NCBI GenBank assembly: GCA_964016885.1
Contig: OZ024741.1
Span: 150,474,001 to 150,538,000, forward strand
Direction: 5' to 3'
Length of the DNA stretch: 64,000 nt
From: Eledone cirrhosa
Lineage: Eukaryota
The translations under genes were made by a program, and so were the position numbers. Positions 1,079-55,685 of this stretch are shown here, piece after piece (the stretch's first letter is position 1; the number at the start of each line of letters is the position of its first letter). The notes below the pieces were generated by a model that made no database searches, was not told the origin of the DNA, and saw only the letters and a list, made by a program, of their open reading frames with translations.

Positions 1079-1116
1079 CCTTTACCGGTTTCGCAGTTCT
1101 TCTGCTTTTCAAAAGG
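1079..1116 (-). ncRNA. Type-I hammerhead ribozyme motif, U3:A8 core (mirror copy)
   Basis: Reverse complement of 1171-1208. Confidence 0.75.
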
Positions 1117-1170
1117 TGAGTTGAGATGGAGGGTCTGTGGTTTTTCTCACAGACCCTCCATCTCAACTCA

Positions 1171-1208
1171 CCTTTTGAAAAGCAGAAGAACTGCGAAACC
1201 GGTAAAGG
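1171..1208 (+). ncRNA. Type-I hammerhead ribozyme motif, U3:A8 core
   Basis: cctt-TTGAAAA-gcag(aagaa)ctgc-GAAA-ccgg-TA-aagg: stem I cctt/aagg, stem II gcag/ctgc, palindromic stem III ACCGGT, GUA triplet. Confidence 0.75.
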
Positions 1209-1639
1209 AACCAAATAAATATATATTTTTAATAAAAAAAAAAAAAAAAAAAAAAAATAAGACTTCAGTTGCATTTTCAGATTTCATCCCTTTTTCTTTA
1301 TATATATATATATATATATATATATATATATATATATATATATATAAAAACAAATAACGAAACGAAATTAAATTTCGTTTCATTTGTAACTCACTTTTGT
1401 ATGACTGACGCTTAAACAATTAAGTTAAAGATGTACATCCATATATGTATACTGAAATACTAGTATGTATATGAATACACACACGTATACATATGTAGAT
1501 GTACCAAGTTTTTTCACTGGTCACTTTACTGTGAGTGGCCAGCTATTCTGTATGTAAACACACAGACAAACCGGTTTTTAGAGTCATACTGGTTTTTGAG
1601 GAAACACCTTTCCTCTATTCTTCAGAAAGCCAGACAAGG

Positions 1640-1684
1640 AATATTGAACTAGTTTCGTTGTTGTTACAACTCATCAGCAATATT
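1640..1684 (-). ncRNA. Minimal type-I hammerhead (inverted unit)
   Basis: Reverse complement of 2030-2074. Confidence 0.85.
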
Positions 1685-2029
1685 TACCTATCTTCCGGCC
1701 TCTCTAGAGAATCGTAAAAGCACATATCGTTATATGCTTTTTCTATGAAAATTAGTAGTGGGCAGACCAATTTGCATAGAGTGTGAGTAAGTACCGGTTC
1801 AACGGAGACGATAAAAACAAATAACGAAACGAAATTAAATTTCGTTTCATTTGTAACTCACTTTTGTATGACTGACGCTTAAACAATTAAGTTAAAGATG
1901 TACATATAACGATATGTGCTTTTACGATTCTCTAGAGAGGCCGGAAGATAACATATAACAATTAAGTTAAAGATGTACATATAACGATATGTGCTTTTAC
2001 GATTCTCTAGAGAGGCCGGAAGATAGGTA

Positions 2030-2074
2030 AATATTGCTGATGAGTTGTAACAACAACGAAACTAGTTCAATATT
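2030..2074 (+). ncRNA. Minimal type-I hammerhead, unit 1
   Basis: aatattg-CTGATGA-gttg(taacaa)caac-GAAA-cta-GTT-caatatt: 7-bp stem I, palindromic ACTAGT stem III. Confidence 0.88.
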
Positions 2075-2496
2075 CCTTGTCTGGCTTTCTGAAGAATAGA
2101 GGAAAGGTGTTTCCTCAAAAACCAGTATGACTCTAAAAACCGGTTTGTCTGTGTGTTTACATACAGAATAGCTGGCCACTCACAGTAAAGTGACCAGTGA
2201 AAAAACTTGGTACATCTACATATGTATACGTGTGTGTATTCATATACATACTAGTATTTCAGTATACATATATGGATGTACATCTTTAACTTAATTGTTT
2301 AAGCGTCAGTCATACAAAAGTGAGTTACAAATGAAACGAAATTTAATTTCGTTTCGTTATTTGTTTTTATCGTCTCCGTTGAACCGGTACTTACTCACAC
2401 TCTATGCAAATTGGTCTGCCCACTACTAATTTTCATAGAAAAAGCATATAACGATATGTGCTTTTACGATTCTCTAGAGAGGCCGGAAGATAGGTA

Positions 2497-2541
2497 AATA
2501 TTGCTGATGAGTTGTAACAACAACGAAACTAGTTCAATATT
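2497..2541 (+). ncRNA. Minimal type-I hammerhead, unit 2
   Basis: Identical to 2030-2074, +467. Confidence 0.88.
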
Positions 2542-2963
2542 CCTTGTCTGGCTTTCTGAAGAATAGAGGAAAGGTGTTTCCTCAAAAACCAGTATGACTC
2601 TAAAAACCGGTTTGTCTGTGTGTTTACATACAGAATAGCTGGCCACTCACAGTAAAGTGACCAGTGAAAAAACTTGGTACATCTACATATGTATACGTGT
2701 GTGTATTCATATACATACTAGTATTTCAGTATACATATATGGATGTACATCTTTAACTTAATTGTTTAAGCGTCAGTCATACAAAAGTGAGTTACAAATG
2801 AAACGAAATTTAATTTCGTTTCGTTATTTGTTTTTATCGTCTCCGTTGAACCGGTACTTACTCACACTCTATGCAAATTGGTCTGCCCACTACTAATTTT
2901 CATAGAAAAAGCATATAACGATATGTGCTTTTACGATTCTCTAGAGAGGCCGGAAGATAGGTA

Positions 2964-3008
2964 AATATTGCTGATGAGTTGTAACAACAACGAAACTAGT
3001 TCAATATT
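2964..3008 (+). ncRNA. Minimal type-I hammerhead, unit 3
   Basis: Identical to 2030-2074, +934. Confidence 0.88.
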
Positions 3009-3430
3009 CCTTGTCTGGCTTTCTGAAGAATAGAGGAAAGGTGTTTCCTCAAAAACCAGTATGACTCTAAAAACCGGTTTGTCTGTGTGTTTACATACAG
3101 AATAGCTGGCCACTCACAGTAAAGTGACCAGTGAAAAAACTTGGTACATCTACATATGTATACGTGTGTGTATTCATATACATACTAGTATTTCAGTATA
3201 CATATATGGATGTACATCTTTAACTTAATTGTTTAAGCGTCAGTCATACAAAAGTGAGTTACAAATGAAACGAAATTTAATTTCGTTTCGTTATTTGTTT
3301 TTATCGTCTCCGTTGAACCGGTACTTACTCACACTCTATGCAAATTGGTCTGCCCACTACTAATTTTCATAGAAAAAGCATATAACGATATGTGCTTTTA
3401 CGATTCTCTAGAGAGGCCGGAAGATCGGTA

Positions 3431-52869: not shown

Positions 52870-53050
52870 CGCCGGACAACATGCTTTGCTGCATATAGTT
52901 ACAACCCTTTATAATCTGAGTTCAAATCCCGCCTTTCATCCTTACAGGATCGTCAAAATAAAGCACCAGTAACGCATCGGGTCGATTTAATCAACTTTTT
53001 TCTTCCCTTCAAATTGTTCTTCTGTGCTAAATGTAGAAACAATTATTATT
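52870..53050 (+). mobile_element. SINE with internal deletion
   Basis: ctgagttcaaatcccgcctttcatccttac. Confidence 0.75.
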
Positions 53051-53059
53051 TATAGAGTT

Positions 53060-53430
53060 TTTAAAATGTTTTGGATAGTTTGTAGAGGCAAGTATTCTTT
53101 TATTTTAGGCCCACTTCTAAGAATTTCCATAGTCTCCGCAATGCATAAATTACAGTTATTAGTCCCCTCTATATGGATACACTGATCTAATTATAGAGTG
53201 TAGTTCGTTGTTCAGCTTTAATTGCCAAATCAATTCTGATGAAGCCGTGCTCTTTGTTTATTTATATTATTGAAAGAGTAGCGATGATTATACCATTCTT
53301 CCTTAAATCGAGTAACGGTCGATCCTATATATCTATATAATTCATTATTGGTAATAATCCTACATTTACACACTATATTCCTTTTGAGGCAATTGTTTCC
53401 GAGAGAGCATACCACAGGTTTCTGCAGTTG
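53060..53430 (-). mobile_element. Naiad-like PLE GIY-YIG fragment
   Basis: CSLGNNCLKRNIVCKC..YIGSTVTRFKEEWYNHRYSF..CNLCIAE. Confidence 0.78.
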
Positions 53431-53565
53431 TTCAATAGTTTACGCGTAGGATCTATTACGAATATATATAAATATGTACATTCCCCCCACACACATGCAT
53501 ACACACACAGACACACATACATATATACATAGTTTAGGATAGTTTCCGTACAACTTCATTTAGAC

Positions 53566-53604
53566 CGAGCTGAGGATCCGAATAAGGTGAAACATTTGTT
53601 CTCA
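53566..53604 (+). ncRNA. Hammerhead of the 25385-26089 family
   Basis: cgag-CTGAGGA-tccgaataaggt-GAAA-cattt-GTT-ctc. Confidence 0.62.
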
Positions 53605-54189
53605 GTATGGTGAACTAACTGTGGTCGAACTACTTCTACTAAACTCGTCCCATGGACTGAGTGCTCTACTACTACGGATGTAACCCACCTCGCTCGTCCA
53701 CACGATCTGGAACTTATGTTCAGTTACCGCCGTGGACTTGAATTTTCTTTCTTCAAGCTGCTCGTACACTCTTCGGTTTGTTGTTTCCAGTTTTTTTCGT
53801 TTTTTTGGGCTGTTTTTCTCTTTTCTCTATTTTTTTCGTGAAGTTAATAAGACTTTATGATAATGCATGCTCTTGTTTGTTTGTTTCTTGTATTCTAGAT
53901 ATATACTTCCATGCTTACGCGGACTCCCACTCTGGCCGTCGGATTACCCTTGGTTTACACTTGGTTTACCCTTTGACTACTCTTGGATATCTCTCGGATT
54001 ACCTACGAACTCCAACTTTTGGATCTTTTGAACAGCAATCGTGTCATCAATCTTCCATGATCCATCACCCACTTTGCTCTACCTCTTGTATCTATCTCCT
54101 TGCCTTTACCTCAACCGACATCCAACCATGCGCAACCACTCCTGCCTAAAATTGTACCCCCTCCCCCACTTCTGCATTAAGCCCACACT

Positions 54190-54852
54190 TTGCCTGGAAT
54201 TTGCTAATGACATGGTGTTTCTTAACTCGTGAAGGTGATCCAACTTGCACCGATAGGCTTGTGCAGCACAACGAGAATATAAATCAAGGCTGTGAAAACT
54301 GAGACACTCGTTCTCTCAAGGAAACCTGCGCAGTGCAATCTACGTGTAAATGGAGTTCCACTGAAGCAGGTTGAGAAGTTCAAGTATCTTAGAGCCATGT
54401 TCATGAGTGGTGGAGGGCAGAATGCTGAATTAAGTTCTAGAATTGCATTCAGTAATCAAAATAAGGGAAATAGACGCAAAAGCCAATCTCGCTATCTTCA
54501 ATTCGGTAATCGTGCCAATCCTTATCTATGGTTTGGATCTTAGGTAATGACCGAAAGAATATGATCGCTAATACAAGCGGCCAAAATGGGGTTTCTCGGA
54601 AGGGTCTTTGTAGTAAGGTTACTCGATAGAGTGCGTAGCTCAGAGATCAGAGAGTCACTACAGGTAGAGCTACTACTTCTGTGAATTGAAAAATCACAGC
54701 TCCGGAACTATGGGCAAGTTATTAGAATGTCTCAGGGAAGAATCGCTGGACGGAGCTTATGGGTAAAACCAACCGATAGGAGACCCAGGGGTAGACCTCG
54801 AGCTAGAAGGTTGGATAAATTCCACGAGTTTGGGATTAGTTGGAGACGGTTG
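54190..54852 (+). mobile_element. RTE-clade LINE 3' RT fragment
   Basis: LEFANDMVFL, KTETLVLSRKP..LKQVEKFKYL; homologous to ~19330-19850. Confidence 0.82.
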
Positions 54853-55306
54853 CTTATATATATATATATTCGATTGATTATTGATTAGGCGAACCCGCTG
54901 ATGAAGCCACACGCGCCGATTGTGCATTGTTGCATAATAAATGTAGACAGTAGATTGCTGCATTAAGTGGCGCCGACTCGAGTATGGGTATAGATTGAAG
55001 GTACCCATTTACGCGTGTTGTGTTAAAGCGAATAACTATATGTCTACTCTGGGTGTTTACTTAACATTACCTATTGAGTACGCTGAGATGCAACCGGTAC
55101 TAGCAGCGAAACCCATGCTAGTCTCGTCAACCTATTATATATATATATATATATATATATATATATATATATATATGAATGTATATATAGTGTATTTTGC
55201 AATACACTGTATGCTTAATTAAAAGCATTTCGAAGACCTTACGCTATTGTTTTAGAGTAGTGACAGTCTCAGTTACTTTACATTTTCAGCAAAAAAGGGG
55301 AGATAA

Positions 55307-55351
55307 AACTAACAGAGCTCTGTTTCGTACTGATTGGTACTTATCAAAGCC
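55307..55351 (-). ncRNA. Hammerhead, U3:A8 core
   Basis: ggct-TTGATAA-gtac(caatca)gtac-GAAA-cagagctct-GTT-agtt. Confidence 0.75.
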
Positions 55352-55640
55352 AAGTACTCCACCTGTCTGCTGAAAATCATGAATGTTTGATTCTTATAGA
55401 ATTCTAGTAGTAATCAGGAACTGATTATAGAGAGCGGTTGCCGGTCAGGCAGATATTGAAAATTAGAATTGGTGCTCTGAAATAGCGATATATATATGAA
55501 TGTATATATAGTTTATTTTGCAATAATAATTTTCAATATCTGCCTGACCGGCAACCGCTCTGTATAATCAGTTCTTGATTATTACTAGAATTCTATAAGA
55601 TTCAAAAATTCATGATTTTCAGCAAACAGGTGGAGTACTT

Positions 55641-55685
55641 GGCTTTGATAAGTACCAATCAGTACGAAACAGAGCTCTGTCAGCT
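55641..55685 (+). ncRNA. Hammerhead, U3:A8 core
   Basis: ggct-TTGATAA-gtac(caatca)gtac-GAAA-cagagctct-GTC-agct. Confidence 0.82.

Follow-up and report, generated by a model that had tools for sequence, protein, structure and literature searches.

The 64,000-nucleotide stretch of the Eledone cirrhosa genome considered here (assembly GCA_964016885.1, contig OZ024741.1, positions 150,474,001 to 150,538,000 of the forward strand; hereafter the window) raises the question whether hammerhead ribozymes in which the C3:G8 pair of the core is replaced by U3:A8 are decaying remnants of mobile elements or a form of the ribozyme kept by selection. For the C3-G8 pair, PMC3884650 cites crystal structures and two biochemical studies as the established evidence; natural covariation from C3:G8 to U3:A8 was reported for "several examples" by Perreault et al. 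in 2011 (PMC3088659), and the double change C3U + G8A is given there in section 8 as active in vitro (its ref. 32). The present analysis argues for selection: the U3:A8 motifs are type I hammerheads carried by Penelope-like and retrozyme-like repeats and probably self-cleave the element RNA as their C3:G8 counterparts do, while position 3:8 appears to alternate between two states, C:G and U:A, with purifying selection for pairing.

A descriptor scan of the window with positions 3 and 8 left free recovered all motifs of the original prediction and gave nine type I hammerhead motifs with the U3:A8 core, spread over five repeat insertions, designated as families A (1079-1208), D (30292-30329), H (31.4-31.6 kb), B (39397-40415), and C (55.2-55.85 kb) (Table 1). 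The Watson-Crick 3:8 pair is U:A in all nine, and each of them possesses U4, G5, A6, N7, A9, G12, A13, A14, the A15.1:U16.1 pair, and H17. Apart from H, the motifs consist of a 4 bp proximal stem I, a 4 bp stem II, GAAA, a palindromic or near-palindromic stem III, and an NUH site; in the family D motif at 30296 a U.U mismatch opens stem II. Inverted pairs are formed by A, B, and C, a 317-bp tandem unit is characteristic of B, and the inverted partner of D is broken (30009-30131). The family A motif on the plus strand is hosted by a non-coding Penelope-like repeat with (TA)n at its end. Family H, which had been called only probable and placed at 31472-31578 of the minus strand, turned out to be a real hammerhead with bounds drawn too short, the true span being 31407-31582. 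The view of H as a poor or chance motif was dropped after four related loci had revealed its true stem III, GUC site, and stem I of 8 bp, where GGTTCCTG is paired with CAGGAATC; the stem II region comprises 82 nt, the long stem III 65 nt including a capping hairpin, and the folding z value of the motif is -4.0.

Genome-wide counts were obtained with a pattern of core, G, 10-18 bases, C, GAAAC, 2-8 bases, and GUH, which was run four times (one run per 3:8 combination) and controlled by its reversed form, some sites, family B among them, being counted twice. The matches amounted to 24,637 for U:A, 13,694 for C:G, 249 for U:G, and 349 for C:A, against 385, 50, 110, and 92 in the reversed controls, respectively. 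Taken with the 135 matches against 5 in the 1.2-Mb sample described below, the ratio of 24,637 to 385 excludes chance. Mismatched 3:8 cores above control make up 396 against 37,896 paired ones (1.0%), so the count per 3:8 pair, which had been proposed as a check, gave mismatches far rarer than U:A (396 above control, versus 24,637 U:A matches with a control of 385); the mismatched matches listed are mainly solitary members of known families or products of local tandem duplication. Two locally duplicated groups of six mismatched C3:A8 copies each, at C1:348863669-348911675 and C1:375635330-375643747, apparently owe their spread to duplication of the DNA rather than to retrotransposition. When A or U was required at both ends of stem II, a second pattern gave 6,641 U:A matches with a control of 1,445, i.e., about 5,200 above control and mostly family D among the matches listed, and both patterns together give a total of about 30,000 U:A motifs in the genome. 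An exclusive tie of U:A to G10.1:C11.1 is ruled out by this second, A/U-flanked pattern.

Since the genome pattern favours one subclass, the frequency was estimated with a broader descriptor in 120 stretches of 10 kb placed at even intervals (1.2 Mb, contigs C1-C14). The 135 matches included 110 C:G, 13 U:A, 5 U:G, 2 C:A, and 5 other cores, while the reversed sequence gave 5; A:U and G:C pairs were found once each, which is the control level. Of the 123 paired cores, 13 were thus U:A (10.6%, interval 6-17%); with a 2-bp stem I allowed, the share was 19 of 130. Counted by insertion, it was 12 of 78 or, with the 2-bp stem I, 18 of 85, i.e., about 15-21%. A scan for long-stem-III forms added 7 C:G, 2 U:G, 2 C:A, 1 U:A, and 1 other core. 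The density of conventional hammerheads, about 100 per Mb, corresponds to about 300,000 in the genome, distributed over many families and with a wide error from tandem arrays. According to these data the claim that the variant is about as common as CUGANGA holds in the window, where nine U:A motifs stand against ten intact C:G motifs and one decayed, and in the single subclass with G10.1:C11.1 straight after A9, where alone U:A outnumbers C:G, but not in the genome sample. Rfam gave no hammerhead match for families A, C, and D, and scored family B at 31.1 bits, below the gathering threshold of 52; a canonical C:G repeat with 37.7 bits was also under this threshold, so the Rfam models miss canonical copies in the window too. 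The Rfam scan of the window yielded chiefly microRNA matches on simple repeats, and every hammerhead match was under gathering. The expectation that standard searches overlook the U:A population is borne out for these families, the population being about a tenth of the hammerheads and not half. For censuses fixed on CUGANGA this means that about one-tenth of the conventional hammerheads of the genome, some very young families included, is overlooked.

The structural setting of the two pairs in the sample is not the same. G and C directly flank stem II in 13 of 13 U:A motifs versus 10 of 110 C:G motifs, and the proximal stem I has 3-4 bp in 13 of 13 U:A motifs versus at least 5 bp in 103 of 110 C:G motifs; many C:G families lack the usual G10.1:C11.1, the first and last stem II bases being U.U in 39 of the 110. 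These values would agree with U:A being more than tolerated, namely positively favoured in some structural settings as a ribozyme tuned to be slower or dependent on context. This explanation is unlikely, because the approximately 5,200 U:A matches above control carry A or U beside stem II, stem I of family H reaches 8 bp, the families are not independent samples, and drift towards U:A is expected in a genome with 35% G+C.

Several observations indicate that whole families were amplified with the U:A pair in place. A family A pattern with positions 3 and 8 left free found 6,255 genome matches, the first 100 listed being all U:A; the best 40 matches of family B were 100% identical, and 40 copies each were scored from 1,103 candidates of family D and 1,285 of family H. 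The median divergence from the majority base was 0-2% in the sampled copies (59 of A, 28 of B, 17 of D, and 23 of H), and such near-identical copies of A, B, D, and H derive from masters that amplified while carrying U:A. No variant at positions 3 or 8 of B and H exceeded the thresholds of 5% and 3% in sequencing-run contigs, which are possibly from the same species and were given no weight.

The constraint on the motif was estimated from alignments of distinct variants. For B/C, 14 of 23 variants were aligned, nine being dropped as near-duplicates, truncations, or single mutants, and the core was invariant save positions 3, 7, and 8: U4, G5, A6, A9, GAAA, and U16.1 are the same in all 14, and position 17 is C, U, or A. 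In the stems 11 of 30 pairs are altered on both sides with 92% of cells paired, a value as high as this being found in 0 of 500 shuffles; in the six rows of H the corresponding values are 8 of 23 pairs and 96.9%, again reached by 0 of 500 shuffles. Three helices, with the RNA ends meeting in stem I, are thus supported by covariation in B/C and H, and the stems are present in A and D. Of 94 family F matches, 92 retain A8 despite variation at position 7 and in stem II, position 3 being outside this comparison.

The number of lineages is smaller than the number of insertions. B (at 39.9 kb) and C (at 55.6 kb) are 75% identical over 711 bp and constitute one lineage, so the window holds four U:A lineages, all with Penelope-type layouts, inverted or tandem. 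The description of the families as unrelated is overstated, since it fails for B and C; the flank comparison of A, D, H, and B/C revealed no homology beyond low-complexity sequence. A relationship of A and D is not shown, as their flank score was traced to (TA)n and A/T runs.

Three lineages, B/C, H, and G/J, each contain both C:G and U:A sister subfamilies, and the flank comparisons gave no link among the three. The C3:G8 sister subfamily of B/C has 80 copies and lies beside the U:A rows under the midpoint root, which implies one change of non-fixed direction; the H lineage is represented by three U:A and three C:G rows. In the Penelope-like protein tree the U:A family G (locus L257) is sister to the C:G family J (locus L316) with support 99/96 and 60% protein identity, J being the closest relative of G among the 18 rows, while the U:A family E falls outside G-J and the three families group at 88/93. 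A single U:A clade was rejected in this tree (p-AU 0.026), where 9 of the 18 rows are under half filled, some hammerhead links to open reading frames (ORFs) are by proximity only, and the G-J identity was already known before the one-clade test was made. The presence of both states in each of three lineages requires at least three double changes, or four if E is counted, whatever the ancestral state. As judged from these sequence comparisons, both sides of the 3:8 pair have changed together in no fewer than three lineages. That U:A arose once and was inherited by all U:A families, the agreement reflecting shared descent and not repeated selection, is quite unlikely: the single lineage of B and C, the grouping of G, E, and J (which fits ancestral U:A with reversals), and the position of the C:G subfamily of B/C beside the U:A rows would suit such an origin, but the at least three double changes, in either direction, the missing flank link among B/C, H, and G/J, and the low-complexity nature of the A-D signal speak against it.

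The rarity of mismatches, the compensatory changes in stems, and the existence of C:G and U:A sisters together point to selection on the pair and not to decay. In this respect the original prediction was upheld, considering that mismatches amount to about 1%, the pair was switched jointly in at least three lineages, and whole families were amplified with U:A. The intermediate in the crossing between C:G and U:A is likely a rare wobble or mismatch form, which fails to amplify. A further extension, that retroelement hammerheads repeatedly flip 3:8 as a toggle and that U:A is a tuned ribozyme chiefly of compact forms with intact G10.1:C11.1, is possible but doubtful. If it is true, about 30,000 active ribozymes of this genome would so far be uncatalogued, and several of its sister families, near-isogenic natural pairs of C:G and U:A, would provide a direct test of compensatory fitness-valley crossing and of cleavage rate versus transposition. 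In the C:G/U:A sister subfamilies nature has replicated a compensatory change in an RNA tertiary contact, and they offer cheap constructs for the measurement of cleavage rates.

The carriers of the motifs resemble either Penelope-like elements or retrozymes. L257 (459-6428, minus strand), a locus outside the window, is a near-complete Penelope-like element of about 6 kb with direct terminal repeats of 740 bp, 98.6% identical, each of which contains one U:A hammerhead. Its ORF, with one frameshift, shows motifs like those of reverse transcriptases and has an end resembling GIY-YIG; the GIY-YIG match in Pfam was weak (E 0.057), and the reverse transcriptase was assigned by motif reading and by similarity to the Penelope-like ORFs of the window. 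The layout repeat-ORF-repeat is common to L257 and L316, family E lies 307-402 nt behind a GIY-YIG-like endonuclease in six loci, and a cysteine-rich linker before the endonuclease suggests, on reading of the sequence, a Neptune-type Penelope-like element. The copies of A, B/C, D, and H are inverted, 5'-truncated, and located in (TA)n. Retrozyme traits are found in B, with its 317-bp tandem period in the window and other loci and no ORF of 120 aa, and in H, with 565-bp tandem units; no short tandem units were seen in A or D. The units of B and C include an internal ATATATAT run and both insertions (39397-40415 and 55167-55854) end in (TA)n, which suggests microsatellite priming. The family A flanks gave no linked ORF, either in long upstream sequences or in five same-family pairs; the ORF beside A in locus L068 was ruled out as its own, being an insertion target interrupted by the inverted A end.

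In the proposed mechanism the element transcripts would fold with U3 paired to A8. Stem III of the palindromic families forms self-dimer duplexes of -8.3 (A), -10.5 (B), -20.1 (C), and -8.3 (D) kcal/mol and alone makes little or no hairpin; families A-D are thus likely to be cut as dimers via this stem. Family H is predicted to fold as a monomer and with its long stem III should likewise cut as a monomer, being the simplest test case. In B/C the extended stem I has an internal loop, through which it could make a tertiary contact with loop II. Cutting would free unit-length RNA, which might be circularised, and the Penelope reverse transcriptase and endonuclease would copy it into (TA)n tracts.

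A number of observations weigh against the reading of the motifs as selected, self-cleaving ribozymes. The minimum-energy monomer folds of A-D, G, and E do not include the full hammerhead, shuffled sequences fold as well as A, D, G, and E, and in family E the part of stem I beside the core is a mere 2 bp long. The shuffle control of covariation ignores relatedness, and the alignments are small (14 and 6 rows of hand-picked distinct variants). The H tree leaves the order of changes unsettled, and one C:G row of it, L266, has a damaged U4. The 1.2-Mb sample contains 7 mismatched cores (5 U:G and 2 C:A) against 13 U:A, several of these mismatched cores being recognisable single copies of C:G families; moreover, the rarity of mismatches demonstrates only that no mismatched master amplified, as inserted copies decay neutrally. 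No autonomous partner and no linked ORF were found for the window families A, B/C, D, and H. Finally, published Penelope minimal hammerheads cleave poorly in vitro according to Cervera and de la Pena 2014 (PMC4209133), whose authors leave functions other than cleavage open. It is nevertheless very unlikely that the U:A cores are weakened or dead hitchhikers of elements that spread uncut and keep the structure for another role, e.g., Penelope enzyme binding, as this low activity and the weak proximal stem I of A, D, and E might indicate, because the core is invariant in 14 B/C variants while the stems covary, position 17 stays C, U, or A, and C:G and U:A sister subfamilies both amplified. Selection for a paired and probably self-cleaving core is retained as the best explanation.

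Table 1. Hammerhead motifs and hammerhead-bearing repeats of the window
Feature	Position	Strand	Details
Family A U3:A8 hammerhead, TTGAAAA	1079..1116	-	Inverted, 5'-truncated partner copy; inverted arms 996-1302
Family A U3:A8 hammerhead, UUGAAAA	1171..1208	+	Stem II GCAG/CUGC; palindrome CCGG; GUA site 1204
Family D U3:A8 hammerhead, UUGACAA	30292..30329	+	U.U at 10.1/11.1; palindrome CCGG; GUA site 30325
Family H U3:A8 hammerhead	31407..31582	-	565-bp unit; U3 at 31574; GUC site 31415
Family B insertion, retrozyme-like	39397..40415	.	317-bp tandem units and inverted copy, between (TA)n tracts
Family B U3:A8 hammerhead, TTGATAA	39564..39607	-	Inverted copy; Rfam HH9 31.1 bits, gathering 52
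Family B U3:A8 hammerhead, TTGATAA	39918..39961	+	GUC site 39957; long distal helix extends stem I
Family B U3:A8 hammerhead, TTGATAA	40235..40278	+	Next tandem unit; GUC site 40274
Family C U3:A8 hammerhead, TTGATAA	55307..55351	-	Inverted copy; GUU site; same lineage as B
Family C U3:A8 hammerhead, TTGATAA	55641..55685	+	Palindrome CAGAGCUCUG; GUC site 55681
C3:G8 hammerheads in 467-bp tandem repeat	1640..3475	.	Cores 1677-, 2037+, 2504+, 2971+, 3438+
C3:G8 hammerhead inverted pair	25485..26051	.	Cores 25518-, 26018+; stem I CGAG/CUCG pattern; relative at 53570+
C3:G8 hammerhead	26329..26386	-	
C3:G8 hammerhead, long stem II	29684..29804	+	About 760 nt behind Penelope-like endonuclease remnant

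The motifs lie in a 3.0 Gb genome rich in microsatellites and retroelement remains. The array of the 467-bp C3:G8 repeat (1344-3702) is itself retrozyme-like, with an inverted copy and near-identical units, and abuts the family A insertion; a decayed C:G hammerhead is located at 40844. Penelope-like reverse transcriptase or endonuclease remnants were found at 37752-38951, 48686-50075, 28651-28935, and 53266-53409, and the family B insertion sits about 450 bp behind the first of them. Broken non-LTR (long terminal repeat) retrotransposons with RVT_1 and zf-RVT matches occupy 5436-8757, 12500-16100, and 44700-48240, and the segments 12505-15886 and 44726-48116 of the latter two are 96% identical. 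A 190-bp repeat with about 90% identity has five copies in the window (30766-30955, 35097-35326, 40643-40831, 42949-43183, and 50755-50942), and the A+T-rich region 20700-24550, composed of diverged repeats of about 590 bp in both orientations, is a source of weak false hammerhead matches.

In comparison with known systems, both the U3:A8 variant and its tie to Penelope elements are already in print, which limits the surprise. The new points are the scale of the census, the finding that sister families have switched the pair repeatedly, the correction of the H ribozyme, and the pairs of sister families. A literature search, with Lunse 2017 and all supplements outside it, gave nothing on switching between sister families or on U3:A8 retrozymes. 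Section 8 of PMC3088659 describes the same U10.1-U11.1 opening of stem II as in family D, and contains neither a census nor repeated switching inside element lineages. The C-terminal GIY-YIG Penelope-like elements, as presented by Craig et al. 2021 (PMC8557442), share the hammerheads in terminal repeats, 5' truncation, inverted partners, and microsatellite insertion. The metazoan non-LTR retrozymes, in the main texts of Cervera and de la Pena 2020 (PMC7229834) and of Li et al. 2026 (bioRxiv 10.64898/2026.07.22.740005), are similar in their non-coding tandem units, which measure some 300 bp and have a single type I hammerhead each, and in living beside Penelope-like elements (B with 317 bp and H with 565 bp are the counterparts here); circular RNA is demonstrated in those studies, and a text search found neither U3-A8 nor UUGA in the two main texts.

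The nearest parallel is provided by the Cercyon Penelope elements of Schistosoma mansoni, for which Cervera and de la Pena 2014 (PMC4209133) give about 1,300 U3-A8 versus about 2,000 standard minimal hammerheads, numbers that do not support the designation of U3:A8 as a rare natural variant. Cercyon has in common with the present families the U3-A8 swap, Penelope-like terminal repeats, and high copy number. The minimal hammerheads of that study have no stem III beyond the core, an extra base after A9, and a stem II of 7-8 bp, while in the U:A motifs of the window stem III is palindromic or long and stem II is short. The Schistosoma U3-A8 set, collected with a minimal descriptor without stem III, is described there as heterogeneous and composed mostly of single motifs, whereas the present motifs have a stem III formed by a 4-10-nt palindrome or a long helix, belong to young, near-identical families, reach about 30,000 matches, and include sisters that differ in the 3:8 pair.

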